Source: an uncultured Oscillospiraceae bacterium (GTDB lineage Bacteria > Bacillota > Clostridia > Saccharofermentanales > Fastidiosipilaceae). From it: DNA of 64,000 bases. Positions 8,108-63,738 of this stretch are shown here, one piece after another (the first letter of the stretch is position 1; each line of letters starts with the position of its first letter). Location: positions 8,597-72,596 of the forward strand of contig CAZAPS010000003.1 of the NCBI GenBank assembly GCA_964487355.1, read 5' to 3'. The translations under genes were made by a program, and so were the position numbers. Under the pieces are notes generated by a model, which did not search any database, was not told the origin of the DNA, and saw only the letters and a program-made list of their open reading frames with translations.

Positions 8108-10414
8108 TTAAGCTTCCTCTTCAGCTTGCTCTTCAGATTCAACTTCAACAACTTCGCTGATCGCTTCATCTTCGGTGGCATCCGCCATCTCAGCGCTCTC
8201 GTCAACTTCGATGTTCTCCTCAACTGCGATGCCCTCTTCAGCCTCGGCGACTTCGTCGGCCTCAACAGTCTCTTCCGTCTCAGAATCAGCTTCCACTTCG
8301 TCCTCAACAGAATCCGCGTCCTCTTGGACCTCGACTTCCTCCACAACGTCTGAAGTCTCATCTGTCGCGTCCACGTCCTCAGTATCGACATAAGACATCG
8401 GTAGATCGTCATCGTCCGTCTGCTCCTCGCTCTCCATCTCAGGATTGATCAAGGTGTCGATCGGAGCGACGTCTTTTATGCTGACGCTGATACGGCGAGT
8501 CTCGTTGGAAACTTCCAACACACGCACATCGACTTCCATTCCCTCAACCAAAACCTCATCCGGTTTGTTCAACCGACGATTGGATATCTGAGAGATGTGG
8601 CACAGTGCGTCAACGCCCTGGTCAATTTCAATAAACGCGCCGAACGGGAACATGCGAACCACGTTGCCGTGCACGATCGAACCCACCGGGAACCGCTCTT
8701 CAATGTTGTTGTACGGATCGTCCTCGATGCGTTTGAAGCCAAGAGAGATCCGCTTTCTGTCCTCGTCAAAGTCTTTGACATATACCTGAATGGTATCGCC
8801 GACTTTCACCACCTCGGACGGGTGCTTGATGCGCTTCCAGGACAACTCGGAAATATGAACCAGTCCGTCCACGCCGCCAATATCGACAAACGCGCCGAAA
8901 TCGGTAAGGTTGCGCACGATGCCATCGTAGATGTCGCCGACCGCGATATTCGCCCAGACGCCCTCAGCTTTCGCTTTGCGCTCATGGTTCAACAGCGCCC
9001 GTCTGGAGCCGGATACACGCAGACGGCGCTTGTCCGGATCAAACTGGGTGACCAGAATATCGAAGCTCTCGCCACGATATGGCTCAAGGTCGTCCACTGT
9101 GCCCATTTCCAACTGGGTCCGATGCACATAAATATCAACACCGCCGTAGGACGCGATCACGCCATCCTTAACTACATTGATAACCTTGACGTTGATGGGC
9201 TCTTTGTCATTGAAAGCTTCCTCAACCAGGTTTCTGTACTTCGCGAAGTCGACTTTCGCCTTGGAAAGAAGGATTTCCTTGCCGTTCTCGGTGCTGCGAA
9301 TGCTGCGCACATAGACGTCAATCTGCGTCTTCTCCTCAATGGCCAAGTCCAAATCAAAATCGGGATTGTTATCAAATTCATGACGAGGAATGCGACCTTC
9401 TGTCTTGTCTCTGACATCGACATAGACATTCTCATCATCGTAGCGGACAATAACACCTTTTACCGTCGCGCCTCTGTGAAGCTGCGGAATGTTGTCAATA
9501 AAATCAGTAAAACTGATATCCCCCATGTCCTGCTGCAAGTCCTGCTCATTCATCGTCTCGTTTTCATCCATTATGTGAAAAACCTCCATGATAATACTTT
9601 CCGGTGAAGACGCACCTGCTGTTATGCCGATCTGCTTACCGGAAAAGTCACGCTCCGCCAGTAACTGATGCAAATCGTCAATACCCTCAATCAGATGGGT
9701 ATCACCGCATTCGCCACGGCAGATATCAAGAAGTTTCACTGTGTTGGAACTATGGTTGCTGCCTATAACCAACATCACATCGGAATGTGATGCGAGTGCT
9801 TCCGCTTCCCTTTGTCTGTTTTCCGTAGCATTACATATTGTATCAAAAAAATGTAATTTTGCAATTGATTTTCGCAATGTCGACAATATCGTCGCAAAGT
9901 TGCTCACCGAGAACGTCGTCTGCGCGACCAGCGTCCAGTCACCTTCACCAGAATCAAACTGTTCCGCCTGCTCCAATGTTTGAATGATTACCGCGGAATT
10001 GTCGCACTCGCCATTGATACCGACAACCTCAGGGTGGCTCGGATCACCTACTATAATGATACGATCTCCTTTTTCGTGAGCTTCTTTGACTATCTTGTGA
10101 ATGTGCTTGACATAGCCACAAGTGCAGTCGATCACCACACAGCCCTTTTCTTTCAGCCGGCGCACTTCTTGCGGCGTGACACCATGCGCGCGGATAATCA
10201 CTTTGGCGCCGTCGGGAATCTGCTCAATGGAGGTCGCCAACCGCGCTCCACGCTCCGCCAGGTCATCCATCACCAGGCGATTGTGAATCAACTCACCATA
10301 CATGTAAATCGGACCACTATCGCCATCTTGTTCTTCCAGCAATTGGTACGCGGTCTGAACCGCATAGTCCACGCCTCTACAAAATCCGGCGGAACGTGCC
10401 ATTTTAACACTCAT
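8108..10414 (-). CDS. ispH: Bifunctional 4-hydroxy-3-methylbut-2-enyl diphosphate reductase (IspH) / ribosomal protein S1-like fusion with acidic tail
   Basis: 768 aa. The N-terminus has the IspH signature (ARSAGFCRGVDYAV). Four S1/OB repeats follow (GATVKGVIV.., INVKVINVVKDGV.., GDIYDGIVRNLTDFGAFVDIGG.., GSIVHGNVVRMFPFGAFIEI..). The last ~130 aa are D/E-rich. The ATGA overlap with plsC suggests translational coupling. Confidence 0.9.
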   Translation of the reverse strand: MSVKMARSAGFCRGVDYAVQTAYQLLEEQDGDSGPIYMYGELIHNRLVMDDLAERGARLATSIEQIPDGAKVIIRAHGVTPQEVRRLKEKGCVVIDCTCGYVKHIHKIVKEAHEKGDRIIIVGDPSHPEVVGINGECDNSAVIIQTLEQAEQFDSGEGDWTLVAQTTFSVSNFATILSTLRKSIAKLHFFDTICNATENRQREAEALASHSDVMLVIGSNHSSNTVKLLDICRGECGDTHLIEGIDDLHQLLAERDFSGKQIGITAGASSPESIIMEVFHIMDENETMNEQDLQQDMGDISFTDFIDNIPQLHRGATVKGVIVRYDDENVYVDVRDKTEGRIPRHEFDNNPDFDLDLAIEEKTQIDVYVRSIRSTENGKEILLSKAKVDFAKYRNLVEEAFNDKEPINVKVINVVKDGVIASYGGVDIYVHRTQLEMGTVDDLEPYRGESFDILVTQFDPDKRRLRVSGSRRALLNHERKAKAEGVWANIAVGDIYDGIVRNLTDFGAFVDIGGVDGLVHISELSWKRIKHPSEVVKVGDTIQVYVKDFDEDRKRISLGFKRIEDDPYNNIEERFPVGSIVHGNVVRMFPFGAFIEIDQGVDALCHISQISNRRLNKPDEVLVEGMEVDVRVLEVSNETRRISVSIKDVAPIDTLINPEMESEEQTDDDDLPMSYVDTEDVDATDETSDVVEEVEVQEDADSVEDEVEADSETEETVEADEVAEAEEGIAVEENIEVDESAEMADATEDEAISEVVEVESEEQAEEEA

Positions 10415-50142: not shown

Positions 50143-52458
50143 TTACGGAACAACGATCACATCACCGGGCGACAGCACCCAGTTGATCGTATCTTCCGCC
50201 TTCGAATAGGAATGACCGTTGGCGGCCGCGATCTCCAACATCTTCGCCTCGACATCGGAGTCCGGATAGAACTTGCGAGCGATCGCGTATACAGAGTCAC
50301 CCGAAACGATCGTGTACGTCCGCTGCTCAGCGGCCGTGGTCGGAGCTTCAGTGGTGGTCGTGGTTGGAGCCTCGGTCGTGGTCGTAGTTGGAGCCTCGGT
50401 CGTGGTTGTGGTCGTCTCTTCCTCGGTCGTGGTCGTCGTCTCTTCCTCAGTCGTGGTGATCTCACTGACGATGGAGCCGGGTTCGGCCGTGGTCGTCGAG
50501 CCGGTGATCAGCGTTGACTGATTGGTCAACGGCGAGATGGTGGTCGGCGTCGTGATCGAGTCGGTCGCTCCACCTGTGGCCAGAGAGTAGATAATAAAGC
50601 CCAGCAACACACCGGCGATGACAATCAGGACAATGACCGCGATCAGTTTGCCGCGGGACTTGTCCTTCGGCTCCACGCCGTCCGGTGTCTCCTCATAATC
50701 ATCTTCAAGATCAAAGTCGGCATAGGTCATCGGCAGTTCGTCTTGAACCACGTCTTCTTCCTTGTCGTCAAAGTCATACGCCAGATCGTCATCTGTCCAC
50801 CCATCCGTCTCGTCATCCGACCAGCCGTCAGAATCATCCGGATCAGCGTAGATCTCATCATCATCATCGGTGTCGATCAGATCGGGCCGCTCGTCATCCG
50901 CGACCTCTTGAGCAAGACTTTCACCGTCAGACTCAACAGGTTGAACCTGAAAAGCGTATTTCATCGTCTCATCTGTGGACGGGATCGCTTCATCCTGCGC
51001 GTCGGCCGATTGCTTCTTTTGATTCAGTAGATCAAAGGCCGCGCCAAAACCCAAGGGTCGCTGCAACTCCGTCTCGACGGCGTCGGTCACACCCTCCTCG
51101 ATGGCAGGCGTCACCTGATCTGAAGTCATGTCCTCAGCGACAACAGTTGGCGCTTCTTCTAACGTCTCAGTTGGAATTGGCTCAGAATGCTCGGTGTCGG
51201 GAAGTTCAGAGTCACCGACCCGGTCTTCCGTGAAGTATTTTGCCGCCGCCGCGGACACGGAAACTTCGGCCGCTCCAGCCACCTCCTCCGGTTCGATCTC
51301 GGCGGGCTCTGAATCCGGCAGATCCAGTTCATCCAGCTCACTTTCATCAATCTTCTCATCCGCTTCGAAAGGATCCACCTTCCACGCCGATTCATCCACG
51401 GTGGGGACGGTGTCTGCCCGCATCGGTTCATCAGCAGCGGAGATCGCATCCTCCCGTGTCGGCTCATCCGCGGTCGTTTCGTGCGGCTTCGCCACTTCAG
51501 AGGCCCATCCGGCGGCCGCTCCCATTCCAGCGGCTGCCGCGGCGATTTGGCTGCGCTCCGCGGCGCTGAGCGCTCCGGTCGTCCTTTGAGCTTTATTGAT
51601 CTTCACCGGACCGGTTTGCGCCGCGAAACCCTTGCCAAGTGTGTCCCTGACATTGATGCCCTTGGACAGTGTGTTACGCCCAACTCGATCCAGTGGTTCG
51701 ATTTCTTCGACAAAGCTGATCACGATCTGCATCGAAACATTCGGTATCAGGCGCACCGCCTCGCTCATGATCATCCCGGCCGCGTCACTTTGATCCTCGG
51801 CCTCGTCAAGCAGGCGCAACATGCCCTTTTGACCGACCGCCTCCATCACTTCACGATTACAGACGATCAGACAGTCATCCGGTTTTAATTGAGCGATATT
51901 TGAATAGCGAATCGATCCCGCGATACCTGCCGCGAAGTCGTTCATATTATTGATTTGACGACCCGCGGTGTCGATCGGCTCCAGCGGATAGTCATCTTCA
52001 GTCAGCGCGAAAATGGCTTCGTCACGGTATAGGTAGGCACATCCTCTTCCTAAAGTGACCGCCGCCATCTCTCCGTCTTTGACGATAATCCCTGAAAAAT
52101 ACGGCGGACTGACTCCCTTATCTGAAAGTGTGAGTCGCCCGGCCACGTTGACCGCGCTTTCGGCGAGCTCGTTGATTTCATAATCTATGTTGTGTCTGTG
52201 ATTTTTCTTTAGATCATTGGCGATGGCGTCCAAGATCGCCCGATTGCCGTCATTTCCATCGGCCGGAGTTTTAGACCCATGCGTCGAGGCGTATACCGCG
52301 ATAAACGCGCCGCGATCCGTTCTATCAAGTGTTAGATCAGCAAAAAGCTCTTCGCGTTTGCCACTGATACGGCCGTCCAGATAAAAAGCATCAATGGCTC
52401 CAACCGTAGGTGTGTATCGTGCCGCGATTGTTGTCGCTAAACGCGTATTACTCGCCAT
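50143..52458 (-). CDS. Multidomain membrane protein: degenerate PP2C-like domain, acidic linker, TM helix, Thr-rich repeats, C-terminal LysM
   Basis: 771 aa. The LysM is clear (YTIVSGDSVYAIARKF...VLSPGDVIVVP), as is the TM helix (LIAVIVLIVIAGVLLGFIIYSLA). The N-terminal ~270 aa are collinear with PPM phosphatase blocks but lack the metal-binding Asp residues (see findings). Confidence 0.7.
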   Translation of the reverse strand: MASNTRLATTIAARYTPTVGAIDAFYLDGRISGKREELFADLTLDRTDRGAFIAVYASTHGSKTPADGNDGNRAILDAIANDLKKNHRHNIDYEINELAESAVNVAGRLTLSDKGVSPPYFSGIIVKDGEMAAVTLGRGCAYLYRDEAIFALTEDDYPLEPIDTAGRQINNMNDFAAGIAGSIRYSNIAQLKPDDCLIVCNREVMEAVGQKGMLRLLDEAEDQSDAAGMIMSEAVRLIPNVSMQIVISFVEEIEPLDRVGRNTLSKGINVRDTLGKGFAAQTGPVKINKAQRTTGALSAAERSQIAAAAAGMGAAAGWASEVAKPHETTADEPTREDAISAADEPMRADTVPTVDESAWKVDPFEADEKIDESELDELDLPDSEPAEIEPEEVAGAAEVSVSAAAAKYFTEDRVGDSELPDTEHSEPIPTETLEEAPTVVAEDMTSDQVTPAIEEGVTDAVETELQRPLGFGAAFDLLNQKKQSADAQDEAIPSTDETMKYAFQVQPVESDGESLAQEVADDERPDLIDTDDDDEIYADPDDSDGWSDDETDGWTDDDLAYDFDDKEEDVVQDELPMTYADFDLEDDYEETPDGVEPKDKSRGKLIAVIVLIVIAGVLLGFIIYSLATGGATDSITTPTTISPLTNQSTLITGSTTTAEPGSIVSEITTTEEETTTTTEEETTTTTTEAPTTTTTEAPTTTTTEAPTTAAEQRTYTIVSGDSVYAIARKFYPDSDVEAKMLEIAAANGHSYSKAEDTINWVLSPGDVIVVP
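50342..50460 (-). repeat. In-frame tandem ~24-nt coding repeats (EAPTTTTT x3, EETTTTT x2)
   Basis: Plus-strand units GGAGC(T/C)TC(A/G)GT(G/C)GTGGTCGT(G/A)GTT repeat three times, followed by two CTCTTCCTC(G/A)GTCGTGGT.. units. Confidence 0.85.
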
Positions 52459-53983: not shown

Positions 53984-54331
53984 TTATTTTTGCATTATAT
54001 GAATCGCGAAGCCTCCAAACTCACCGTTCAAATAAACATTTTTGATCGTGCCGTCGTCATTGTAGGCGGCGGTATCCATGTTAAACGCCAGGCCCTTCTC
54101 CTTGAGCTCCTCGACAGCGGCCGCGAGGTCTCGCGTACGCATGGCGATATGTCCATTTTTTCCAAGGAACGGAGTCTTCATGCATTCAAAATATTGACCT
54201 GCGAATTCCGACTTTTGACCATGTCTGGGTTCCAAATTGAATACCATGCTTAGCAACTCAGCCAGTTTGATCGCCTCGTCCGCATTCGCGGTGTTGATCC
54301 CAACGTGTTCGAGTTCAAATATGTTTTTCAT
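53984..54331 (-). CDS. Small VOC (glyoxalase/bleomycin-resistance fold) protein
   Basis: 115 aa. LEHVGINTANADEA...GHIAMRTRDL is a single beta-alpha-beta-beta-beta pair module. This is the last gene of the acid-sugar locus. Confidence 0.6.
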   Translation of the reverse strand: MKNIFELEHVGINTANADEAIKLAELLSMVFNLEPRHGQKSEFAGQYFECMKTPFLGKNGHIAMRTRDLAAAVEELKEKGLAFNMDTAAYNDDGTIKNVYLNGEFGGFAIHIMQK

Positions 54332-54366
54332 AAATGTGCCTTTCTTATACCCGGTGATTTTCCGGA

Positions 54367-55650
54367 TTATCTCATCGGGAACAACAACAGAGCGCCGGCT
54401 GACAGTGCCAACAAACGAATGAAATACATTGGAACCGTGAATTTCCAGAACTGTCTAATATTGTATTTTCCGGCTCCCATAATCATTGCCGGCATCCCGT
54501 CAATTGGCAGGAAGTGTCCACACCAGCCGGAGACCACTATGGCCGCCGCCGCCGCGATCGGGTTGAGGCCAAGGCTGATACAGGTTGAAATCGCCAACGG
54601 CGCGAAGATATAAACAGTACCGATCGTTGAGCCGGTCAAAGTTGCCAGCACACTTGTTAAAATACAAAACGCAAACACAAGAATGAATGGATTGATATTG
54701 TTTCCCAGTAGTTTGGCCACACTCTCTCCAACCAAAGCGGTCAATCCGGTCTCACCCAGCGCGTCCGCCACGCCAATCACACCGGCCGACATCAAAATGA
54801 TGGGCGCGCTGATGGCGTCACGAATCTCCGTGAAATCCAGCACCTTAAAGACCAGCAGCCCGGCCACACACAAGCCGGTGATTGAATAGCCGATATCACC
54901 CAGGCTACTTTGCAGGATCATGCCGACAACCGCGATCACAAAGAGCACATACGTCGCGTATTCCTGTTTTTTCGTTAAAGTCGTGTCCTCTTTTTGCTCG
55001 GTCGCGATACTCTCTTCAGAAGTGTCATCAAGCGGATGATCCGGCAGTAATTTATAAGAAATCAGGGACCAGGCGAGAAAAGATGCCGAAAGGATAAAAT
55101 TAACTACTGAAAACTTAACCAAAGAGACGTTGGCCATGACACCGCTGGTCTCCAGCACCGCCACCACGATTCCATATTGCAAGGCGACATTGAATGGAAT
55201 CAGCGGATGGTTCGCGGCGAAGCCGGCCGGCATCAGCACACGTGACGGCGGCAGACTTTTGCTGTAAGGCAGCGTTGAAAGCAGGCCAATTGTCAAGACG
55301 TAGTATGCTGTGGAGCCGGTTCCAAACAGACTGCAACCCAGCATGACAACCAAAATCATCAAAACATATGCTTTGAAACCACCCTTGCTTGACATGTTGA
55401 ACATGCCACGTTTAAACCGCCCAATAAAACTGGTCTTCTGCAAGGCGGCGATGATCGCCATAAATGAGGCGAGCATGATGATAGTGGGATTTGAGAAACC
55501 CCCGAACGCGGTTTTAAGATCGGTCACACCGAAAACAACCATTAACAGACATGCGATGAGCGGCGGTGCCCCGAATGGAATTTTGTCTCTCATGATTAGA
55601 ATAATCATGAAGACAGTGACGGCAAGCGCAATAATCATCGGAGTGGTCAT
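54367..55650 (-). CDS. CitMHS/SLC13 (ArsB/NhaD superfamily) anion permease
   Basis: 427 aa and polytopic. The N-terminus (IIALAVTVFMIILIMRDKIPFGAPPLIACLLMVVFGV...) is typical of citrate/dicarboxylate-type carriers. Confidence 0.65.
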   Translation of the reverse strand: MTTPMIIALAVTVFMIILIMRDKIPFGAPPLIACLLMVVFGVTDLKTAFGGFSNPTIIMLASFMAIIAALQKTSFIGRFKRGMFNMSSKGGFKAYVLMILVVMLGCSLFGTGSTAYYVLTIGLLSTLPYSKSLPPSRVLMPAGFAANHPLIPFNVALQYGIVVAVLETSGVMANVSLVKFSVVNFILSASFLAWSLISYKLLPDHPLDDTSEESIATEQKEDTTLTKKQEYATYVLFVIAVVGMILQSSLGDIGYSITGLCVAGLLVFKVLDFTEIRDAISAPIILMSAGVIGVADALGETGLTALVGESVAKLLGNNINPFILVFAFCILTSVLATLTGSTIGTVYIFAPLAISTCISLGLNPIAAAAAIVVSGWCGHFLPIDGMPAMIMGAGKYNIRQFWKFTVPMYFIRLLALSAGALLLFPMR

Positions 55651-55810
55651 GTTAACTACCTCCCTTTTCTTGACAAGTCATGTCTCGTACGCCGGCCCTT
55701 CTCAGTCGGGCACGGACATGCATGTCGGCCATTTGTTATGTATTGTTTATTTTGTGGGATGACAAATTCTGTCTGTCATGTAACGCAGATCCGGCGGTAC
55801 CAACTCACGG

Positions 55811-56881
55811 TCACGCGCCGCGGTTGAGCGCCAGGCGGATGGCGTAATCGATCGCGTTGACCAGGCTGCTCTCACTGCTCGTCCCTTTTCCAACCTGATC
55901 GAACCCCGTTCCGTGATCGACACTGGTCCGGATAATCGGCAATCCTAAAGTGATGTTGACCCCCTCCACCGCCTTCCAGCTTTGTTCTTCGCGGTCGTAG
56001 ACGAAGCCTATTGTTTTTAAAGGGATATGTCCCTGATCGTGGTACATACAGACAACGATGTCATACCAGCCACCTAAGGCTTGGGGGAACACAGTGTCGG
56101 GGGGGACGGGCCCAATGGCGTCGATGCCCTCCGCCCGCGCGGTCTCAATCGCCGGTATGATCTCTTCAATCTCTTCATAGCCGAAGAGTCCGTTCTCACC
56201 CGCATGTGGGTTCAGCCCATTGACGGCTACACGCGGATTGTCGATTCCCAGCTCTTGACAGGCATGATGGGCGATCCTGATCACATCGAGCACACGCTCT
56301 TTTTTCACCCGATCACAAGCCTCACGCAGCGAGACATGGGTGGAAATGTGAACGACTCGCAGGTCGTGGTGCGCCAGCATCATGCTGTACTTTTGAGTTC
56401 CTGTATAGGTCGCGTAGATCTCCGTATGTCCATCAAAATGTGTATATCCGTCTGAATGCGCGCCTTGGTCCGACTCAAGCGCCAGATTCATCGCTTTCTT
56501 GTTCAGCGCGTTCGTGCAGGTCGCGTCCACTTCGCCGGCCAGAGCCAGTTCGATGACCTTTCTCACGCACTGAAAAGCCGCATATCCACCCGCGACACTG
56601 ACCTCTCCAAGTGGCAGATCGCTCGGATCCGAAATCAATTCCAAATGCAGCACATCAATCGTGCCCGGCGAAAACACGGCGTCGGAGACCTGCTCGCAGC
56701 GGTGAATCCGCAGATCACGGCGTCCAACGAAACCGGTCGCCTGTTCAATCATTTTGGCGTCGCCAATCACGATGGGGCGGCAGCGCCGATACAGATCCTC
56801 GTGTGCCAGAGCCTTCACTGTGATTTCCGGTCCGTTGCCGGCCGGGTCACCCATTGTGATTCCTATGATCGGTCTCTTCAT
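55811..56881 (-). CDS. PdxA-family NAD-dependent dehydrogenase (PdxA2-type, 4-phospho-tetronate dehydrogenase candidate)
   Basis: 356 aa with IGITMGDPAGNGPEI, HISTHVSL and VDHGTGFD blocks. SD AAGGAGG lies upstream. Confidence 0.85.
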   Translation of the reverse strand: MKRPIIGITMGDPAGNGPEITVKALAHEDLYRRCRPIVIGDAKMIEQATGFVGRRDLRIHRCEQVSDAVFSPGTIDVLHLELISDPSDLPLGEVSVAGGYAAFQCVRKVIELALAGEVDATCTNALNKKAMNLALESDQGAHSDGYTHFDGHTEIYATYTGTQKYSMMLAHHDLRVVHISTHVSLREACDRVKKERVLDVIRIAHHACQELGIDNPRVAVNGLNPHAGENGLFGYEEIEEIIPAIETARAEGIDAIGPVPPDTVFPQALGGWYDIVVCMYHDQGHIPLKTIGFVYDREEQSWKAVEGVNITLGLPIIRTSVDHGTGFDQVGKGTSSESSLVNAIDYAIRLALNRGA

Positions 56882-56907
56882 CCCGGTCCTCCTTAGTCAA
56901 TGGCCGC

Positions 56908-57816
56908 TTAATTCATACCTTTGGCCGCATTCTCCGCCAGCACCTGTTTCAACGCCTCGACGCCTTCTTCAGGCACCTGGTTGAATGGCGCGCGGCACTT
57001 GCCCACACCATGGCCCAGCAAAGCGACCGCCGTCTTGACAATCGTGTTTGGGTTGCCGTACTTAAAGCAGTTACGAAATGATTGAATGGAGTCATTCGCG
57101 GCCATCGCCTCCTCAATCTTTCCAGCTTTGAAAAGATCATAAATAGATGCCATGACATGAGGGTAGACATTGGCGCAGCCGGCGATACCACCGGTTCCGC
57201 CCGCCAACAAAGTCCAGATAATCAACTGATCGTTCCCGGACAAGGTGGAAAACTTACCACTGGTTTGATCCTTCGTCGCGGTGATATAACCCAGGATGTT
57301 CGCAAAATTACCCGACGAATCTTTGGCGCCGACGACATTCTCAATTTGCGCCAATTTGCCAACGGTCGCCGGTGTCAGAGCGTTGCCTGTGCGCGCGGGG
57401 ATGTTATACAGCACGATCGGCATATCGACCGCGTCAGCTACGGTTTTATAATGCTCATACAGTTCATCCTGACTAGCGGCGGCGAAGCTGGGTGTGATAA
57501 TCGAAAGCACATCAGCTCCCAGTGAGTGGGCCATCTGACTTTGTTCGATGGTCTCTCGGGTGGAGACACATCCTGTACCGGCATAGACCGGCACACGCCC
57601 GTTACACTCGTCGATCACGGTGCGCAAAACCAGTTCCTTCTCCTGTCCATTCAGGATATAGCCTTCACCGTTTGTTCCAAAGCAGAACAGCGCGTGCACA
57701 CCGCCTTCGATCTGTCGATTGACCTGCGTGCGCAACTCGGCGACATTGATTGATTCATCCGCGTTCATCGGCGTGATGATCGGAGTGATGATGCCTTTGA
57801 TTTCGACTGTTTTCAT
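56908..57816 (-). CDS. DHDPS/N-acetylneuraminate-lyase family class I aldolase
   Basis: 302 aa from the ATG at 57816 (SD GAGGAG), with GTNGEG, YNIPARTG and a VGAKDSSGN Schiff-base Lys context. The track ORF extends to 57852. Confidence 0.8.
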   Translation of the reverse strand: MKTVEIKGIITPIITPMNADESINVAELRTQVNRQIEGGVHALFCFGTNGEGYILNGQEKELVLRTVIDECNGRVPVYAGTGCVSTRETIEQSQMAHSLGADVLSIITPSFAAASQDELYEHYKTVADAVDMPIVLYNIPARTGNALTPATVGKLAQIENVVGAKDSSGNFANILGYITATKDQTSGKFSTLSGNDQLIIWTLLAGGTGGIAGCANVYPHVMASIYDLFKAGKIEEAMAANDSIQSFRNCFKYGNPNTIVKTAVALLGHGVGKCRAPFNQVPEEGVEALKQVLAENAAKGMN

Positions 57817-57912
57817 TGTTTTTCTCCTCATATGCTTAATCTGTGCCCACAACTACATGATTCGTAACCTTGTTTAGCGAGGTCGAACGGATGACCTGCT
57901 TTTATACCGTAC

Positions 57913-59079
57913 TTATAGAATTTCCATATATAACTTACGGGCATCATCCGCCCCAACCTGACGCATGTTGTTCACCAACAGGCGCTGCACTTCCATACCC
58001 GCTTCCACCAGACCTTCGAGATCTTCCTTCGGCACATTGAACTCTTGTAGACTGATCGGAATATCCAGATGTCTGACCATGTCCTCAATCCGTTGAATGA
58101 CCCAATCTGTCTTCTCCTCTACGCTCCGGCTATCATCGCCGTCATGACAGCAACGGTCATAGACAATCGCCAGTCTCTCTCGCACAGCCGGCTCTTCGCT
58201 GTTGAAACGCATGACAGGCGCCAGTAAAATCGCGTTGGACACACCATGCGCGATGTGGTATTTGCCACCCAGGGGATAGCTCAAAGCGTGCACCGCGGTC
58301 GTGCCACTCGAAGTGATCGCCAGGCCACCATAGAATGCCGCTATCTGCATCGCGCTTTTGTCATCCATGGCTTCGGGGTCATCGCAGGCTCGCTCAAGAT
58401 GCTTGAAAATCAGATCCATGCCTTCCAGCGCGTACAGATCGCTGAAAATGTTGGCTTTGTTACTGGTGAAGCACTCAATACAATGGCAAAGCGCGTCGAG
58501 GCCGGTCGAGGCCGCGATGGCGCGGGGCAGCTTCTGAATCATGCGGGCATCCAGGATGACGTAATCCGCGATCATATGCGGGTTGACGATCCCCACCTTC
58601 AATTCTTTTTCGGGCACAGCCACAATCGCGTTTGGTGTGACTTCGGCGCCGGTACCGGCCGTTGTGGGAATCACGACGATTTGAACGCATTTTTTCGCCC
58701 GCCCCGGTTCGTCAAGAAGCTCTTTGACTCCATACTCATCAGTCACAAGTACGCCGGCCAGTTTCGCCGCGTCGATGACCGACCCACCTCCGCAGGCCAC
58801 AATGAAATCAGCCCCATCGCTTTTAAACTGATCGATCACAGCCTGAACCTGCATATAATTGGGTTCGGCAGGCAGATCGTCATATACTGTGCACTCGGCT
58901 CCCGCCGCCGCGATAGCCGCCAAAGGAAGGTCAACCAAGCCCGTCGCCTGTATACCTTTGTCGGTAAACAAAGCAACCTTCTTTGCTTCCACAGACTGCA
59001 AAATATCCGTGAGCCGGTCGATAGAGTTCTCTCCGCCGTAAACAGCGTTCGGCAAGGTCAGGTTATACTGTTTTAACAT
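57913..59079 (-). CDS. Iron-containing (group III) alcohol dehydrogenase
   Basis: 388 aa with GGGSVIDAAK and His-rich metal-site blocks (ALCHCIE, HALSYPLG..HIAHG). SD AAGGAG lies upstream. Confidence 0.85.
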   Translation of the reverse strand: MLKQYNLTLPNAVYGGENSIDRLTDILQSVEAKKVALFTDKGIQATGLVDLPLAAIAAAGAECTVYDDLPAEPNYMQVQAVIDQFKSDGADFIVACGGGSVIDAAKLAGVLVTDEYGVKELLDEPGRAKKCVQIVVIPTTAGTGAEVTPNAIVAVPEKELKVGIVNPHMIADYVILDARMIQKLPRAIAASTGLDALCHCIECFTSNKANIFSDLYALEGMDLIFKHLERACDDPEAMDDKSAMQIAAFYGGLAITSSGTTAVHALSYPLGGKYHIAHGVSNAILLAPVMRFNSEEPAVRERLAIVYDRCCHDGDDSRSVEEKTDWVIQRIEDMVRHLDIPISLQEFNVPKEDLEGLVEAGMEVQRLLVNNMRQVGADDARKLYMEIL

Positions 59080-59211
59080 GTTCTAAACTCCTTAAAACTT
59101 AGGTCCATCGATTCAAATATCACAGCGAGCTGTCGGATCATGCGAAAGACACATATGACGCGTCCATAGTCCAAAACTCGGCAAACAAGCTTTGGTGACT
59201 CCATATGATCC

Positions 59212-60378
59212 TTAGACACCCTTGGCGGCGGTTGGATTGTAAAGGCCAACCTTTTCACGTTTTTCGCCCATCACATCCGCTTCGGTGAAACGCATCCATT
59301 TGATTGTCTGACGTGTCCAGGCAACAAACGCGAGCATTAGATCATCATTTTGACACTGCATCAGATAAGGATATTCATACTGCAAATTATTCGTGCGATT
59401 CTCCTCGCCCATGAAACCTTCGCCACGTTCCATCCAGCGGATCAGAGGGAAGCTCAAACCGCCATCTTCAGACAGGGCCACCGCCACAGGGCAGCGCAAT
59501 CCGGGCCAGGCCGCTTGTCCTGAAACAGGCTCAGGCGTCTGAGTCGGGTTATACGCGATGGCCACACGCCCACTTTTCAGACGCGTCGCGCTGATCGATG
59601 AATTATTGTTGGGCAACGGTGTTGGTTGTGGAACTGTCCAGGTATCACCCCAATCGAAGGATTCACTGCGGTAGATATAATTGGCCTCACGGCTTCGCAT
59701 GAACGCCAAAAGGTGACCATCGTCCATCTCGACCACATTCGGATGGACACGGCCGTGACTGCCCGGCATCATGACTTGACGCCAGGTCTCTCCGTTATCA
59801 TCCGAGATCTGGAAAGCCGACGGATCCCCGGCCAGTCCTTCTTTCGAGTCGGTACAAATCCAATTGCCGAAGATCCAGCGACCGTTCTTCAGCATCTGAA
59901 TCGGCTGCCTCGCGAACGTGCCCTCTTTAGGAAAGACCGTCTCGTAAGCCGCCCAGGTTTTACCCCCGTCCGCGCTCCGCTGGCGCCTTACAACAGACGT
60001 GAACTGCATGTTGTCTTTTCCTTCAACACGATCCAGCTGAGCCGTGTACATCGCCCAGACCTGCTGATCCGGTCCATAGAAAAGCGATGGATTTTGTTCG
60101 CTGCGATCCGGATCAGACGATACGTCAACCGGTGCTTCCCAAGCGTCCGCTCCCTGCGGTAAACGGGCACAGACAATATGCGTGTCCGCGGATCCTTCAT
60201 AAGTTCCGGCAAACCAGGCACAAAGCACATCGCCATTGGGCAGCTCCAGCAGCGCCGGCGCGTGACAGGAAGGAAACCCACCATCAGGCAACTTCGCCTC
60301 AAGCGTCCCCATATCTTTGTTGAAATAGATTTTTCCGTCCGTGGTCAATCCGGGCAAGACCGGATAATTCTTCTTCAT
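59212..60378 (-). CDS. Signal-peptide-less BNR/Asp-box (sialidase-fold) beta-propeller protein
   Basis: 388 aa with four Asp-box-like motifs (SADGGKTW, SDDNGETW, SFDWGDTW, SEDGGLSF) and no hydrophobic N-terminus. Confidence 0.75.
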   Translation of the reverse strand: MKKNYPVLPGLTTDGKIYFNKDMGTLEAKLPDGGFPSCHAPALLELPNGDVLCAWFAGTYEGSADTHIVCARLPQGADAWEAPVDVSSDPDRSEQNPSLFYGPDQQVWAMYTAQLDRVEGKDNMQFTSVVRRQRSADGGKTWAAYETVFPKEGTFARQPIQMLKNGRWIFGNWICTDSKEGLAGDPSAFQISDDNGETWRQVMMPGSHGRVHPNVVEMDDGHLLAFMRSREANYIYRSESFDWGDTWTVPQPTPLPNNNSSISATRLKSGRVAIAYNPTQTPEPVSGQAAWPGLRCPVAVALSEDGGLSFPLIRWMERGEGFMGEENRTNNLQYEYPYLMQCQNDDLMLAFVAWTRQTIKWMRFTEADVMGEKREKVGLYNPTAAKGV

Positions 60379-60422
60379 AAAACTAACTACCTTTCTCTGG
60401 TTATAGCTGACTCATGCTGATT

Positions 60423-61682
60423 TCAATTGCCATCATTCCGTTGCGCGACTATATTCGTTAGCAGATCCACCTCCCCGAATCCACCCGATTTTGTAATCAC
60501 CTCGTGCCACCGTCCGTCATAGTTGAAGCGCGACAAGACAACGCCGGCCGCAAGTTCACCCAGCGGTTCCAATTCATTGATCCCAATAAAACGCATACAG
60601 GCAAAGAGTGTGTCTCCACCCGTAATCAACAGGGTTCCCGTTTCCGGATTATTCAGCAGTGAATGAACAATGTGCCCTAGAGAATCCGCGACCCGCGTTC
60701 TTTGCTTCGGATCATCCATTCCAAGTGTCACCACATCGCCCTCACGCGCCGCTGCCACACCATCGCTTACATCGACAATGCTGTGATTGTGTTGACCGAC
60801 CATCTCGTTGATGGCATCCACCGTCCGTCGACCGGCCTCGGTTCGCCAATAGCCTTCTGTCAGTCGTTGTTCCGGGGTCAAACTGTACCGGGCAAAGCCA
60901 TGCCGCTGGGCATGATCCAGTTGGTTCAGCGTGATCTGATTCACACTTCCACTCACCACTGTAAGTCGAGCATCACGAAAGCCTGTTTGCGAAACAGGTT
61001 TTATCTCAAAGCCGAACAGTTCAGGCAAGACATTCGCCAAGCCGCCACAGCCCGCCAACAAGGTAATCTGTTTTTGAGCCATGATCTGCCCAACCGTTTT
61101 CTCGAGATCCTCTCGTGTTGAGGCGTCAAAGACGAGAATTCCCTCTTCGTCAGGCAACTTTGTCTCTTCATTCAAAGCGGGAAACGTATGCACAGGCACA
61201 TCGCTCTGACTCCCGATCAGTTCGGTGATTTTTGAATGGAGCACGGGTTCGAAAGGGTCCTGTCCAAAAACACTCTGCGCGACAGGTAAATTTTCTATAT
61301 ATTGTTCGGCGTTTATCGTAAAACGATTCATTTGAGGGTATGCCGGTAAAAAAGCCAATCGTTCACGGCCACTCTCTCGCAAAACAGCGGCCAATTCAGC
61401 TCCGACATTGCCCCGCAAGGCTGAATCTGTCTTTTTGAAAATGTAGGGTATGTCCATGCGAACAGCCTGACGCACGATGTCGGCCACGGTTTCATACGCG
61501 TCAGCAGGCGTCAGGTGGCGTGTTTCCGCGTCTATAATCAGCACATCAAGACAACCACTATGTTTTGACCACTCCTGTAGCGGTGGAGTGATCACCTTGA
61601 TTGTGGCCGTGCTCACCGCGAAGGCCACCGCTGTATCCAACGCCCCCGTGAAATCATCTGCAATAATCAACAGCTTAGGCAT
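60423..61682 (-). CDS. Four-carbon acid-sugar kinase family protein (DUF1537; DtnK/DenK/OtnK family)
   Basis: It carries the family N-terminal signature LLIIADDFTGALDTA. I prefer the ATG at 61682 (GGAGAA 8 nt upstream) over the TTG at 61697 used by the track. Confidence 0.85.
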   Translation of the reverse strand: MPKLLIIADDFTGALDTAVAFAVSTATIKVITPPLQEWSKHSGCLDVLIIDAETRHLTPADAYETVADIVRQAVRMDIPYIFKKTDSALRGNVGAELAAVLRESGRERLAFLPAYPQMNRFTINAEQYIENLPVAQSVFGQDPFEPVLHSKITELIGSQSDVPVHTFPALNEETKLPDEEGILVFDASTREDLEKTVGQIMAQKQITLLAGCGGLANVLPELFGFEIKPVSQTGFRDARLTVVSGSVNQITLNQLDHAQRHGFARYSLTPEQRLTEGYWRTEAGRRTVDAINEMVGQHNHSIVDVSDGVAAAREGDVVTLGMDDPKQRTRVADSLGHIVHSLLNNPETGTLLITGGDTLFACMRFIGINELEPLGELAAGVVLSRFNYDGRWHEVITKSGGFGEVDLLTNIVAQRNDGN

Positions 61683-61932
61683 CTCTTTTTTCTCCAAACC
61701 AGCGACAAGTTCATTGTGTTTATAGATGTATTTTGTCAGGGAGAATCAGCATGAACAAGATCACATTCTGTGAAATATGTATCTATTTGAAACGTTTTTA
61801 ATGTTTCCGCACGTACCATCTATTAAGCATTGTCATATTGAAACACTTATAACAGCATCCGCATTTCAATTTGTTCAATTATGATACAATCGAGCCAAAT
61901 GGGAGCCAAAATAATGGCGAGGTTGTCAGATT

Positions 61933-63738
61933 ATGAATAGAAATAAAGATCACATCCACATTTTGGTCATCGCGCCCTATGAGGCCATGAAGCGCTCCAT
62001 AGAACAAGCGGTGGAGGCCTACCCGCAGATCATATTGGACGTGTTTGTCGGTGACCTTGACGAGGGGGCCAATCTGGTCTCTCAACATGAGGACAGAGGT
62101 TATGATTGCGTCATTTCACGAGGCGGCACTGCTGAGCGGATCCGCGAGATCACCGAGTTGCCTGTAATTGATATAGAAATTTCTTTGTATGATGTCTTGC
62201 GAAGTTTTCAATTGGCGGAAAATTACGACAAGCGGTATGCGGTTGTCGGCTTTCCCAGTATCACGAAGTCCGCGCATACGCTCTGCGATCTGCTGCACTA
62301 TGAAATCGAAATCATTACAATCCATAGCCGCGCTGAAGTGCGGCAAGCTCTGCAACTCCTGCAAGAATCCGGCTGTAAGGCGGTTGTCAGCGACATGGTG
62401 GTTCACACAGTCGCGCGCGGCATGGAGATGGACGCGTTTTTGATCACATCGGGAGCCGAGAGTCTGCACATCGCTTTTGAGCAGGCTATCACACTGGGTT
62501 CAACGATGCGCGGCTTGCGCCTTGAGAATCTATTCTTGTCGGCAGTGCTGCAGAATGAGGAACATGATCTCATTGTTTTTGACGGGCAGGCCGAAGTATG
62601 CCATTCCACATTTCTCACTGTGAAAAGTGAGCTCTTGAAGCTGCTTCGAGACAAATTAAGACAGGTAACGGAGAAGAGCTCCGTACGGTTCTACTACAAT
62701 GAAGCGGATGACCTGTTTCTGATCACCGGGCGCGCCCTGCGCTTCAGCCGCGATCGATATGTGCTGTTTCAGATTAAAGAGGCGCAGATCAGCCTCAAAG
62801 CAAGTCGCAACGGTCTTCGATTCTACGAGCGCTCAGTCTGTGAGCGACTCTTCACAAGCAGCTTCTACAACATCAGCGGCGCCATGGGTGAACTCGAGAG
62901 CCAGCTTTCCGCACTGGCCGCGGCGCGCCAACCCATTCTGATCGTTGGTGAGCGGGGTACCGGAAAAGAGCAGATCGCAAGGACGCTCTACTTACGGGCT
63001 CAGCAATCTGAGCGACCACTCGTCACTGTGAATTGTGAACAGATTGATGAGCGTACTTGGTCCTGGTTGTTGAGCAACAGCAATTCACCGTTAGCGGGAC
63101 AGGGCGCCACAATTTATTTTCAGTATTTAGAAGAGCTAAGTGTTGAACGTGTGCATGAGCTCTCCACTTTGATCCGCGAAACCGCGCTGGAACGTAGAGT
63201 CAGGCTGCTCTTCTCAGGTGTTTGCGAAGATGAGGGCTGCATCTCAGAAGGTGGTCGTATTTTAAGCCAAACAATTAATTGCCTCACAGTTCATCTACCG
63301 ACTTTACGGCAGCGCAGCGACGAAATACCCTCTCTCGCCAGTCTGCACCTTGGTGTCCTGAACCTTGAGCTGGGCAAGCAAATCGCCGGGTTTGAGCCCG
63401 GCGCGGGAACACTCCTGCAAAATTTCCACTGGCCATACAACTATACCCAGTTTCGCCAGGTGCTGTATGAGCTGGCCGGCCTTACGAATTCAGCTTATAT
63501 CAGAGTGAACACGGTAGCCGGCGTGCTGGCCAAACAGCGGGCACTCTACCGTGACACCGTTTCCACGGCGTCGGAATCAGCTGCGCCTGATCCGCAAACT
63601 TTGGAGGAGATCATTCAGCAGGCGATGAGGCAGGCACTGGTCCAGCATGGCGGTAATCAGAGCGCGGCGGCCAGACAGCTCGGCATCGGCCGCTCGACTT
63701 TGTGGCGCAATCTGAACAAGGCGGAAGATGCTACATAA
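61933..63738 (+). CDS. PrpR_N-domain regulator with degenerate sigma-54-type AAA+ domain and Fis-type HTH
   Basis: 601 aa. The PrpR_N-like N-terminus reads ISRGGTAERIRE..PVIDIEISLYDVL. Walker A is GERGTGKE. No GAFTGA loop is present. The C-terminal HTH_8 reads QSAAARQLGIGRSTLWRNL. Confidence 0.8.
   Translation: MNRNKDHIHILVIAPYEAMKRSIEQAVEAYPQIILDVFVGDLDEGANLVSQHEDRGYDCVISRGGTAERIREITELPVIDIEISLYDVLRSFQLAENYDKRYAVVGFPSITKSAHTLCDLLHYEIEIITIHSRAEVRQALQLLQESGCKAVVSDMVVHTVARGMEMDAFLITSGAESLHIAFEQAITLGSTMRGLRLENLFLSAVLQNEEHDLIVFDGQAEVCHSTFLTVKSELLKLLRDKLRQVTEKSSVRFYYNEADDLFLITGRALRFSRDRYVLFQIKEAQISLKASRNGLRFYERSVCERLFTSSFYNISGAMGELESQLSALAAARQPILIVGERGTGKEQIARTLYLRAQQSERPLVTVNCEQIDERTWSWLLSNSNSPLAGQGATIYFQYLEELSVERVHELSTLIRETALERRVRLLFSGVCEDEGCISEGGRILSQTINCLTVHLPTLRQRSDEIPSLASLHLGVLNLELGKQIAGFEPGAGTLLQNFHWPYNYTQFRQVLYELAGLTNSAYIRVNTVAGVLAKQRALYRDTVSTASESAAPDPQTLEEIIQQAMRQALVQHGGNQSAAARQLGIGRSTLWRNLNKAEDAT

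Follow-up and report, generated by a model that had tools for sequence, protein, structure and literature searches.

Within the window analysed here, a 64,000-nucleotide stretch of DNA, seven co-directional genes and a divergent regulator gene form a locus whose neighbours are housekeeping genes (Table 1). An earlier note had described these eight open reading frames; all are intact, on the strands and at the coordinates it gave, and the motifs it quoted (LLIIADDFTGALDTA; GTNGEG, YNIPARTG, VGAKDSSGN) are present in the translations.

Table 1. Genes and operator-like repeats of the locus, in window coordinates.
Feature	Position	Strand	Remarks
PrpR_N regulator	61933-63738	+	divergent, upstream of operon
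Operator-like repeat TGTTTCA	61845-61839	-	divergent intergenic region
Inverted pair GAAACA / GTTTCA	61807-61802 / 61793-61788	-	divergent intergenic region (repeats span 61788..61845)
DUF1537 kinase	60423-61682	-	ATG start; 419-aa product
BNR/sialidase-fold protein	59212-60378	-	
Fe-ADH	57913-59079	-	
DHDPS-family lyase	56908-57816	-	302-aa product
PdxA-family dehydrogenase	55811-56881	-	
CitMHS/DASS permease	54367-55650	-	
VOC-fold protein	53984-54331	-	115 aa

A conserved four-enzyme core

The gene cluster recurs in more than 80 species of three phyla (Bacillota, Actinomycetota and Gammaproteobacteria), among gut, rumen and plant-associated bacteria, with different flanks and a shuffled gene order. 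Hungatella hathewayi DSM 13479, Coprococcus catus, Olsenella uli and Succinivibrio dextrinosolvens are among its carriers. This recurrence is far beyond chance, with association statistics that are uncorrected for phylogeny or locus sampling. The lyase, Fe-ADH, kinase and PdxA2-like genes are found together in 29 of the 30 long loci retrieved through the lyase, again in 58 of the 63 sufficiently long loci fetched by the BNR protein (80 other species), as well as in L001-L005. The gene combination is strongly conserved, but the seven genes, earlier taken as one pathway, are not indivisible: the four enzymes are the obligate unit, and the BNR gene is present in only 9 of the 30 lyase-fetched loci. 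We found no publication on this cluster, which is real, widely conserved and apparently undescribed.

The kinase matches Pfam SBD_N (142 bits) and NBD_C (75 bits), and among NCBIfam models it is nearest D-threonate kinase (202 bits, cut-off 450) rather than 3-oxo-tetronate kinase, OtnK (85 bits). It is predicted to be a tetronate 4-kinase of the D-threonate-kinase-like type. Of the outcomes that the earlier note held to be damaging, those open to computation were not found: the cluster is conserved, and the kinase does not side with OtnK. The dehydrogenase (Pfam PdxA, 333 bits), in whose translation the metal-site motifs GHTE, NPHAGE and YHDQGH are visible, passes TIGR00557 pdxA and falls below the PdxA2 equivalog cut-off (331 versus 583). 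On the PdxA-or-PdxA2 placement that had been called for, the PDB matches put it much nearer PdxA2 (2hi1, 277 bits; 6e85, a D-threonate 4-phosphate dehydrogenase, 276) than E. coli PdxA (171). We predict an NAD-dependent 4-phospho-tetronate dehydrogenase yielding DHAP and CO2.

Zhang et al., in PNAS in 2016, reportedly found that DtnK and PdxA2 turn D-threonate into DHAP and CO2. The same two families lie side by side here, with the same predicted products. The locus proteins, however, fall below both equivalog cut-offs, and the pair is always joined to the lyase and Fe-ADH; the tetronate, imported in the DtnK system, would here be an intracellular product of a larger acid. The Fe-ADH (Pfam Fe-ADH and ADH_Fe_C) is nearest the lactaldehyde reductase and 4-hydroxybutyrate dehydrogenase models of NCBIfam, all below cut-off, and FucO and methanol dehydrogenase in the PDB (~170 bits). 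It is a predicted reductase, converting a C4 aldehyde-acid to a tetronate.

The lyase (Pfam DHDPS, 247 bits), which the earlier note had called NAL/DapA-type, can now be described as DapA-derived. In the PDB it matches true DapA enzymes best (166 bits, ~40% identity); it scores narrowly above the dapA equivalog cut-off (212.3 versus 206.15) and well below that of the NCBIfam NanA model (157 bits versus 281). No second DHDPS homolog or dapA was found within the window. In a residue-level alignment the lyase keeps K161, Y133, T44 and R138 of DapA, invariant across 63 orthologs, but two DapA catalytic residues are gone, T45 being replaced by N45 and Y107 by F107 in all 63. R138 is the residue with which DapA holds its C4 aldehyde-acid, aspartate semialdehyde, by the carboxylate. 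Structurally, the locus lyase has no closer relative than DapA, and both would handle a C7 di-acid built of pyruvate and a C4 aldehyde-acid; the locus enzyme differs in N45 and F107, in its catabolic operon context and in the predicted direction, cleavage. It is predicted to be a 3-deoxy-heptulosarate lyase of the class-I pyruvate type.

Interchangeable front ends

The BNR protein, the VOC protein and the CitMHS/DASS permease are one among several alternative front ends. The permease (CitMHS, 98 bits; DASS subfamily, 66 bits, below cut-off; ion-transporter superfamily) is replaced elsewhere by a second CitMHS type, TAXI-TRAP, DctPQM-TRAP, TctABC, 2HCT, SDF, MFS, SSF or CUT1 ABC transporters, with one transporter only per cluster. 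Most of these (CitMHS twice, TAXI-TRAP, DctPQM, TctABC, 2HCT, SDF) are di/tricarboxylate carriers, and their repeated recruitment bears out the dicarboxylate-type permease of the earlier note; the permease is the predicted importer of a di-acid substrate. Among the enzymes, D-2-hydroxyacid dehydrogenase, aminotransferase (paired with an SDF symporter), Asp-oxidase-like flavoprotein, IlvD/Edd dehydratase and glycosidases take their turn, each of them able to form or release a 2-oxo acid. Amidohydrolase, esterase and GH63-like or GH13-like genes are also seen.

The BNR protein (Pfam BNR_2, 190 bits; four Asp-boxes) is 52-80% identical across phyla, and on reading the sequence no N-terminal hydrophobic signal sequence was found. 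Its AF2 model (pLDDT 79) is a six-bladed propeller whose best PDB matches are GH33 sialidases (TM 0.70). The cytoplasmic sialidase-fold propeller of the earlier note therefore stands as to fold, but where the sialidase triad has its first Arg this protein has His: in the alignment H39 falls on the RIP-motif Arg of NanI, and the invariant D65 on the region of the acid/base Asp. Because Arg1 is lost, a role as ketosidase is uncertain. It is a predicted front-end enzyme that would free or convert a cyclic ulosaric acid.

The 115-aa protein is weak by sequence (Glyoxalase_4, 21.5 bits, cut-off 27), but the VOC fold ascribed to it is confirmed on its AlphaFold model (pLDDT 83), for which the top Foldseek matches are VOC-superfamily proteins led by methylmalonyl-CoA epimerases. 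H9, E49, H61, E104 and H111 are invariant. It would be a metalloprotein-like, single-module helper, either a ring-opening anomerase (‘openase’) or an epimerase. In other genomes DUF386, a sialic-acid-type ‘openase’ family, takes its place. The two never share a locus (28 VOC only, 16 DUF386 only, 0 both), and one or the other is present in 28 of 39 loci with BNR versus 4 of 24 without (p = 2.5e-5, uncorrected for phylogeny). YhcH, a characterised DUF386 member, is a Zn anomerase that supplies a DHDPS-family lyase with the ulosonic acid in its open form (PMC8141875).

A candidate pathway and its rivals

What might the operon degrade? Most likely, the locus serves the breakdown of a hydroxylated di-acid sugar taken up from outside, a 3-deoxy-2-heptulosaric acid, for which the best candidate is Dha (3-deoxy-D-lyxo-heptulosaric acid), a sugar of pectin RG-II. 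The permease would bring in the acid, either free or as a small conjugate; the cytoplasmic sialidase-fold enzyme would liberate or convert the cyclic 2-ulosaric acid; and the VOC-fold protein, or DUF386 elsewhere, would speed ring opening much as YhcH does for sialic acid. The DapA-derived class-I lyase would then cleave the open-chain form, a C7 2-keto-3-deoxy-dicarboxylate, to pyruvate and the C4 aldehyde-acid 2,3-dihydroxy-4-oxobutanoate. The Fe-ADH would reduce the latter to a tetronate (D-threonate in the case of Dha), the DUF1537 kinase would phosphorylate this at the 4 position, and the PdxA2-type enzyme would oxidatively decarboxylate the phosphate to DHAP and CO2. The last four steps would be those of the obligate core, and the first three would belong to the exchangeable front end. 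This C7 di-acid route fits with R138 of the lyase, the DtnK-like kinase, the PdxA2-like dehydrogenase and the di/tricarboxylate carriers, and we hold its core chemistry, from C7 di-acid to pyruvate and C4 and from C4 to DHAP, with moderate confidence.

That Dha is the physiological substrate is a more tentative proposal. An independent Fischer-projection derivation (cleavage between C3 and C4, reduction at C4) agrees with the earlier one that D-threonate is the reduced C4 fragment of Dha. The link to pectin and RG-II found no footing: the flanks are housekeeping genes, no pectin or RG-II genes were found in the window or recognised among the annotated flanking and embedded accessory genes, and Dha is a substrate that we infer. 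Dha contributes very little to dietary sugar, which is odd for so widespread an operon, and import of a glycoside by a carboxylate permease would be awkward. According to Ndeh et al. in 2017, the B. thetaiotaomicron RG-II degradome is said to include BT1020, a GH143 Dha-hydrolase that cleaves the Dha ketoside. RG-II degradation in Bacteroides thetaiotaomicron is a 22-enzyme system (PMC12282258). It would be an upstream gut source of free Dha or Dha conjugates; it concerns glycan depolymerisation at the periplasm and surface, and no metabolic route for Dha itself is part of that description. No relation between the BNR protein and BT1020 emerged from searches of PDB sequences at E up to 1.

Two familiar systems share part of the proposed logic. 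The galactarate/glucarate pathway employs GarL aldolase, GarR tartronate-semialdehyde reductase and GarK glycerate kinase, thus aldolase, reductase and kinase acting on a 2-keto-3-deoxy-aldarate, but all the enzyme families differ. The substrate proposed here is one carbon longer, so that a PdxA2-type oxidative decarboxylation is needed to reach triose phosphate. The nan clusters comprise a sialidase, NanA lyase (DHDPS family), the YhcH/NanQ openase (DUF386) and a TRAP or other carboxylate transporter; there as here, a sialidase-fold protein, a DHDPS-family enzyme, DUF386 or VOC and an organic-acid transporter would free, open and cleave a 2-ulosonic acid. The locus lyase, however, is DapA-like rather than NanA-like, its BNR protein is cytoplasmic and without Arg1, and ADH, DUF1537 kinase and PdxA2 stand in place of NanK, NanE, NagA and NagB.

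Could there instead be two independent modules, a D-threonate/D-erythronate pair (kinase and PdxA2) beside an unrelated BNR, lyase and Fe-ADH set, the latter cleaving a sugar acid of the sialic-acid-like or 2-keto-3-deoxy kind, with the resulting aldehyde simply reduced and excreted? Kinase and PdxA2 by themselves make up the complete known D-threonate route, as in Salmonella, and BNR, DHDPS-lyase, DUF386 and TRAP together resemble nan clusters. We think this unlikely, as in 29 of 30 loci, including ones that lack BNR, lyase and Fe-ADH are accompanied by the kinase and PdxA-like genes, genes of both supposed modules are interleaved in many arrangements, each cluster has a single transporter, and a sialic-type substrate would not call for the distal-carboxylate-binding Arg.

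About equally improbable is that the same logic serves another substrate or chain length, with Dha and RG-II irrelevant: a C8 acid, for example, which would lead through a pentonate to a tetrulose phosphate, or a non-Dha stereoisomer or 2-hydroxy- or 2-amino-derived acid. The varied front ends (D-2-hydroxyacid dehydrogenase, aminotransferase with SDF, flavoprotein oxidase and others) point to several precursors, and the missing pectin context is in keeping with this. Yet the C4 fragment alone reaches a central metabolite, DHAP, without further enzymes, no conserved extra isomerase or aldolase was found in the clusters, and the kinase and PdxA-like proteins are nearest C4-specific families. Against the main reading, we know of no natural C7 substrates for those front ends whose enzymes point to a 2-hydroxy or 2-amino precursor, and for this reason the cluster family may serve other acids.

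A mono-acid route would begin with a 3-deoxy-heptulosonate such as DAH, cleaved to pyruvate and erythrose; the ‘ADH’ would oxidise erythrose to erythronate, and kinase and PdxA2 would give DHAP and CO2. It is chemically balanced and draws on known D-erythronate kinase and PdxA2 chemistry, but the nearest models of the Fe-ADH are aldehyde reductases, we know of no oxidation of aldose to aldonate in that family, and it would not explain why a DapA-type Arg is conserved or why di/tricarboxylate carriers are recruited, all of which makes the route very doubtful. Least credible of all is biosynthesis or salvage, with the lyase as the organism's DapA and the kinase and PdxA serving vitamin B6 or 4-hydroxythreonine detoxification: the dapA and pdxA model scores, the lack of another dapA in the window and the ability of DUF1537/PdxA2 to feed PLP synthesis (PMC9997740) speak for it, but DapA's catalytic Y107 and T45 are replaced in 63 of 63 orthologs, no cluster holds dapB, pdxJ or other biosynthetic partners, and the genes, with a substrate importer and dedicated regulator alongside, move between phyla as a unit.

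The regulator and its putative sites

The regulator, whose gene points away from the operon in most of the homologous loci, has Pfam PrpR_N (161 bits) and HTH_8 (Fis-type, 42 bits) domains. Its AAA+ region is partial: the Sigma54_activat match covers only positions 5-64 of 168, with Walker A (GERGTGKE) present. The regulator itself lacks GAFTGA, the sigma-54 contact loop; a GAFTGA-like motif was seen in 0 of 29 regulator orthologs, and no −24/−12 promoter was found. Of the 76 unique regulator-operon intergenic regions, 68-69 carry the hexamer GAAACA/TGTTTC, where shuffles give about 11 (z ~17). From this conservation we infer binding: the PrpR_N regulator probably senses the acid and acts at the GAAACA/TGTTTC sites.

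Gene content and conservation of the locus

The seven co-directional genes and the divergent regulator upstream, as reported in the earlier note, are found exactly so in the ORF list, and all seven minus-strand genes are intact and tightly spaced. Pfam and NCBIfam searches identify a kinase with SBD_N and NBD_C domains, a BNR_2 protein, an Fe-ADH, a DHDPS-family lyase, a PdxA-family dehydrogenase, a CitMHS/DASS permease, and a regulator with PrpR_N, AAA+ and HTH_8 domains; the seventh operon gene encodes a 115-aa protein, discussed below. The annotated starts of the kinase and lyase genes agree with products on record in public collections. The remainder of the window is housekeeping (RNR, RelA, RecJ, AlaRS, SerA/SerC, IleRS, an IspH-S1 fusion, FTHFS, ClpX and trigger factor), no carbohydrate-active neighbours of the operon are present in the window, and from these flanks the operon is therefore seen to be an island in a Clostridia-type core region.

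Coordinates of features in the window
Feature	Position	Strand	Remark
Seven-gene operon	61682-53984	-	
Kinase gene, annotated start	61682	-	
Lyase gene, annotated start	57816	-	
115-aa protein	53984-54331	-	VOC fold
Regulator gene	61933-63738	+	divergent
GAAACA/TGTTTC copies	61845-61839, 61807-61802, 61793-61788		putative operator
TGGCTC-N5-TGGCT	61893-61908		two mismatches
IspH (LytB) fused to S1 RNA-binding domains	8108-10414	-	
771-aa protein	50143-52458	-	no Pfam match
444-aa ORF	5159-6493	-	weak RHS-repeat match

The IspH-S1 domain fusion is typical of Clostridia and supports the taxonomic placement of the window. The 771-aa protein has nothing to do with the operon: its middle part is long, acidic and of low complexity, and it also carries a transmembrane segment, TTTTEAP repeats rich in Thr and a LysM-like C-terminal end; the 444-aa ORF is surrounded by housekeeping genes.

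How widely is the gene set shared? Relatives of the BNR protein at 72-80% identity occur on hundreds of gut metagenome contigs, and all eight genes recur in unchanged order, between wholly different flanks, in an abundant gut species (loci L001-L004) and in Lacrimispora (L005). A species-level scan, with one genome per species, yielded 80 loci, whose carriers include Lachnospiraceae, Faecalibacterium, Oscillospiraceae, Lacrimispora, Hungatella hathewayi, Coprococcus catus, Proteiniclasticum, Selenomonadaceae, Acidaminococcus, Enterococcus, Streptococcus massiliensis, Olsenella, Collinsella, Succinivibrio and the tree pathogen Brenneria. The earlier note had let its proposal hang on conservation of the gene combination in related genomes, and it is conserved: in tblastn searches, of the 63 loci with at least four of the genes for kinase, BNR, Fe-ADH, lyase and PdxA-like enzyme, 58 have all five, shuffled orders included.

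A reverse survey, in which metagenome loci were fetched with a lyase profile and the 30 loci that extend 7 kb or more to both sides were counted, gives a different weight to the individual genes. Kinase, Fe-ADH and PdxA-like genes accompany the lyase in 29/30, but the BNR gene is present in only 9/30, even when permissive thresholds are included; the core is therefore paired with alternative transporters and accessory enzymes. The obligate unit is thus four enzymes, the lyase, Fe-ADH, kinase and PdxA2-like dehydrogenase, with modular front ends, and of the seven-gene pathway proposed earlier it is this core that stands, whereas the BNR protein is facultative and the transporters and accessory enzymes are interchangeable.

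The BNR protein is nevertheless the most conserved protein of the cluster. Between Clostridia and Succinivibrio it is 69% identical, against no more than 25-27% for the kinase encoded next to it (L032 versus L048/L050), and it seems that the BNR gene has either spread horizontally apart from the core or been held under unusually strong constraint. In 11 loci of different genera (L023, L031, L034, L039, L043, L052, L060, L074, L075, L080 and L131) a protein of about 900 aa, by its sequence a putative P-type cation ATPase, adjoins or sits inside the cluster, with no obvious link to the pathway.

The four core enzymes

The lyase had been assigned to the NAL/DapA type, and this is borne out, with the enzyme on the DapA-derived side. 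Structurally it is closest to true DapA enzymes (166 bits), and alignment to the DapA structures 3pud and 3a5f shows that it keeps the Schiff-base Lys161, Tyr133, Thr44 and Arg138, all invariant in 63 orthologs; GAKDSSG contributes the Lys and YNIPARTG the Arg, in exact register with DapA K161 and R138. The motifs are DapA-like rather than the GSTGE and PALSG of NanA, and the NanA equivalogs are failed by far (157 bits against a cut-off of 281 for NF003164, and 142 against 382 for TIGR00683). Is it then simply DapA? The score with the DapA model TIGR00674, 212.3, is just over the cut-off of 206.15, and no second DHDPS homolog is found within the window. But in all 63 orthologs Asn replaces Thr45 (GTNGE) and Phe replaces Tyr107 (P[S/Y]F), where DapA has GTTGE and PYY, and the gene lies in a transporter-regulator-catabolic operon, not in a lysine-biosynthetic context as for DapA. 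In DapA, R138 holds the four-carbon aldehyde-acid aspartate semialdehyde by its carboxylate; the NanA, YagE/YjhH and HOGA-type lyases are not known to have an equivalent. A kept Arg138 together with a partly lost DapA proton relay would be expected of an enzyme cleaving a C7 2-keto-3-deoxy-dicarboxylate to pyruvate and a C4 aldehyde-acid, the reaction we would predict for this lyase.

The kinase matches SBD_N (PF07005, 142 bits) and NBD_C (PF17042, 75 bits), both over cut-off, and carries the N-terminal ADDxTG motif (LLIIADDFTGALD in translation). With the D-threonate kinase (DtnK) model NF047819 it scores 201.7 bits, under the cut-off of 450, yet this is the best kinase model; the models for the 3-oxo-tetronate kinase OtnK (NF043035, 85 bits against 350) and the 3-oxo-isoapionate kinase OiaK (45, also under cut-off) score lower. 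The kinase thus does not fall with OtnK; a place in the OtnK clade would have counted against the earlier proposal. The absence of the usual partners of the tetronate routes extends to the other loci, as an OtnC class-II-aldolase-like decarboxylase or an OtnI-type isomerase is conserved in none of the clusters and a GarR-like beta-hydroxyacid dehydrogenase is present in only 2 loci.

The dehydrogenase (PF04166, 333 bits) has the metal-site motifs GHTE, NPHAGE and YHDQGH. As proposed, it is nearer to PdxA2 (2hi1, Salmonella, 277 bits) and D-threonate 4-phosphate dehydrogenase (6e85, 276) than to E. coli PdxA (171), and it scores 330.7 bits with the PdxA2 equivalog NF002891, under the cut-off of 583; the clade names for both this enzyme and the kinase rest on NCBIfam models and general knowledge. 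PdxA2 is a recognised catabolic paralog that is difficult to annotate (PMC9997740). The Fe-ADH is nearest to aldehyde reductases such as FucO and 4-hydroxybutyrate dehydrogenase.

Taken together, the four enzymes would make a closed, redox-balanced route. The lyase would split the C7 di-acid into pyruvate and 2,3-dihydroxy-4-oxobutanoate, the Fe-ADH would reduce this C4 aldehyde-acid to a tetronate, the kinase would convert the tetronate to 4-phosphotetronate, and the PdxA2-like enzyme would oxidatively decarboxylate the latter to DHAP and CO2. As a prediction from gene content and family membership, we regard this core chemistry as evenly balanced between right and wrong. Under this scheme a D-threonate module of the DtnK/PdxA2 type would be extended upstream by nan-like and Gar-like logic. 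As in nan clusters, a DHDPS-family lyase occurs with a DUF386 openase or, in the window, with the VOC protein in its place, but the lyase of the operon is DapA-like and its BNR protein has the first triad Arg replaced.

Front ends and the candidate substrate

The BNR protein (BNR_2, 190 bits) has four Asp-boxes and no signal peptide. It is modelled as a six-bladed propeller, and its best Foldseek matches are GH33 sialidases (TM 0.70, about 20% identity). Alignment to C. perfringens NanI, obtained from a sub-profile since a single-sequence N-terminal PDB search gave only noise, places a near-invariant His39 (S-C-H-A-P) where the YRIP motif has Arg and puts the invariant Asp65 in the region of the acid/base Asp; the ungapped register to 1eur agrees on His39. 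The complete GH33 arginine triad is therefore not present, although two conserved Arg and, close to the C-terminal end, a Tyr-Pro motif resemble the remaining catalytic residues; these Arg, the Glu and the Tyr nucleophile are putatively placed by motif inspection. The BNR protein is an atypical, facultative member of the pathway. It may hydrolyse a ketoside, hydrate a 2,3-ene form, or catalyse some other reaction. A relationship to the hydrolase (GH143, BT1020) that acts on Dha, the rare sugar 3-deoxy-D-lyxo-heptulosaric acid of pectin RG-II, finds no support, as no such PDB chain appears in the sequence and profile searches or among the best 50 Foldseek matches listed.

By sequence the 115-aa protein is only marginally VOC-like, with a Pfam score under cut-off. 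Its AlphaFold model (pLDDT 83) shows two beta-alpha-beta-beta-beta units, its best 50 Foldseek matches are all VOC, led by methylmalonyl-CoA epimerases, and H9, E49, H61, E104 and H111 are invariant. VOC and DUF386 genes never occur together (VOC only in 28 loci, DUF386 only in 16, both in 0), and one or the other is present in 28/39 loci with BNR versus only 4/24 without (Fisher p = 2.5e-5, a statistic that ignores phylogeny and sampling). YhcH, a DUF386 protein, is a zinc anomerase that provides NanA, a lyase of the DHDPS family, with open-chain sialic acid, a job that free transition metals also perform (PMC8141875). Given this precedent, the mutual exclusivity and the association with BNR, we read BNR plus VOC/DUF386 as a unit that may deliver and open a cyclic 2-ulosonic-type acid, with the VOC protein as a predicted non-orthologous substitute for YhcH. 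In public records the VOC protein (P0294, P0301, P0309, P0331, P0336) is named '2-dehydro-3-deoxyphosphogluconate aldolase / 4-hydroxy-2-oxoglutarate aldolase', a name that is impossible for a protein of this size and fold and so is likely a propagated misannotation.

Across the loci the transporters comprise two CitMHS/DASS types, TAXI-TRAP, DctPQM-TRAP, TctABC, a 2-hydroxycarboxylate transporter (Hungatella), an SDF Na+:dicarboxylate symporter, MFS, SSF and a CUT1 ABC sugar system, for the most part di- or tricarboxylate carriers. The accessory enzymes, besides BNR, are a D-2-hydroxyacid dehydrogenase (16 loci), an aminotransferase, an aspartate-oxidase/fumarate-reductase-like flavoprotein, an amidohydrolase, an IlvD/Edd dehydratase, a GH63/MGH1-like glycosidase, a GH13-like protein, pairs of large PHB-depolymerase-type esterases and a BD-FAE esterase; several of these act at the acid C2 or generate 2-keto-3-deoxy acids. 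Such carriers and C2-acting enzymes would fit a 2-oxo-acid as the point of convergence.

Two of the variants deserve description. The paired esterases, 520-630 aa and apparently cytoplasmic, have a C-terminal PHB-depolymerase/feruloyl-esterase-like domain and an N-terminal half of unknown type; the pairs (L040, L044, L046, L047, L073, L077, L085, L094, L095) accompany a divergent permease subtype (44-54% identity), at times also the BD-FAE esterase, which points to a substrate in esterified or lactonised form. The CUT1 ABC variants (L116, L119, L121, L122, L124, L132, L165; L099, L103) have either a BNR protein of about 50% identity with a P-loop protein and a GH13-like (sucrose-phosphorylase-like) protein, or a GH63/MGH1-like glycosidase after the transporter, a hint that glycosides of the acid are also used.

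What compound enters the core? The mechanistic idea of the earlier note is the most parsimonious one, and the lyase active site, the clade placement, the transporter types and the DUF386 swap lend it independent support. Its stereochemistry also holds: for Dha, D-lyxo at C4-C6, our own hand derivation gives a C4-C7 fragment that, when reversed, has OH-left at C2 and OH-right at C3, which is again D-threonate. Dha itself is the best candidate but still less likely than not to be the substrate, because no pectin-degradation link of the loci was found, Dha is a scarce sugar, and we know of no natural C7 candidates for the precursors that the 2-hydroxy, 2-amino and ester front ends imply. Equally tentative is a joint reading, in which this would be the first 2-ulosaric acid catabolic pathway, for Dha from pectin RG-II or algal/bacterial glycans, with D-threonate as an internal intermediate and not a nutrient. 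It would comprise three new functions, a DapA-derived Dha lyase, a cytoplasmic His-Arg-Arg sialidase-fold Dha-ketosidase or hydratase, and a VOC-fold 'openase' replacing YhcH non-orthologously, in many gut and rumen Firmicutes, Actinobacteria, Succinivibrio and plant-pathogenic Brenneria. The searchable literature, whose coverage is incomplete, yielded no description of the cluster, of a Dha catabolic route or of the C4 intermediate in catabolism. Ascorbate-derived substrates (oxalyl-threonate, diketogulonate, 2-carboxy-pentonates) and catabolism of tartrate, caffeoyl-tartrate, quinate, chlorogenate, hydroxycitrate or DAP were rejected on inferred chemical grounds, as at least one core enzyme would be left without a role or needed enzymes are absent.

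If the Dha pathway is real, several consequences follow. It would explain the final metabolism of one of the rarest plant cell-wall sugars, and suggest cross-feeding from RG-II-degrading Bacteroides to abundant Firmicutes (Faecalibacterium, Lachnospiraceae, Oscillospiraceae). Many genes now misannotated as 'dapA', 'pdxA', 'exo-alpha-sialidase' or even, for the 115-aa protein, 'KDPG aldolase' would receive functions; automated metabolic reconstructions would now count operon genes as lysine and vitamin B6 biosynthesis. It would further be a clear case of a biosynthetic enzyme, DapA, turned to the cleavage of a structurally analogous C7 di-acid, and of modular operon evolution, in which transporters and front-end enzymes of many kinds are exchanged around one four-enzyme core. 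Experimental tractability is good, since cultured carriers are available, among them Hungatella hathewayi DSM 13479, Coprococcus catus, Olsenella uli, Proteiniclasticum ruminis DSM 24773, Succinivibrio dextrinosolvens and Brenneria populi.

Regulation

The regulator was described as PrpR_N-type, and its PrpR_N domain and divergent position agree with this, but it is not a classical sigma-54 activator. It has a Walker A motif and HTH_8, and its AAA+ match is partial; a GAFTGA-like loop is found in 0/29 regulator orthologs, and in 82 homologous intergenic regions the -24/-12 promoter is not enriched (mean best score 7.10 versus 6.89 in shuffles). Sigma-54 regulation was rejected on these two grounds, and so was TGGCTC-N5-TGGCT as a sigma-54 element, since the window has fewer such matches than chance would give. 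The EBP-like regulator thus probably works without sigma-54. The hexamer GAAACA/TGTTTC is present in 68-69 of the 76 unique regulator-operon intergenic regions among loci L001-L166, against about 11 expected, often as an inverted pair; it is probably the operator at which this PrpR_N-type regulator acts independently of sigma-54. The Proteobacteria have a DeoR regulator instead of the PrpR_N one.
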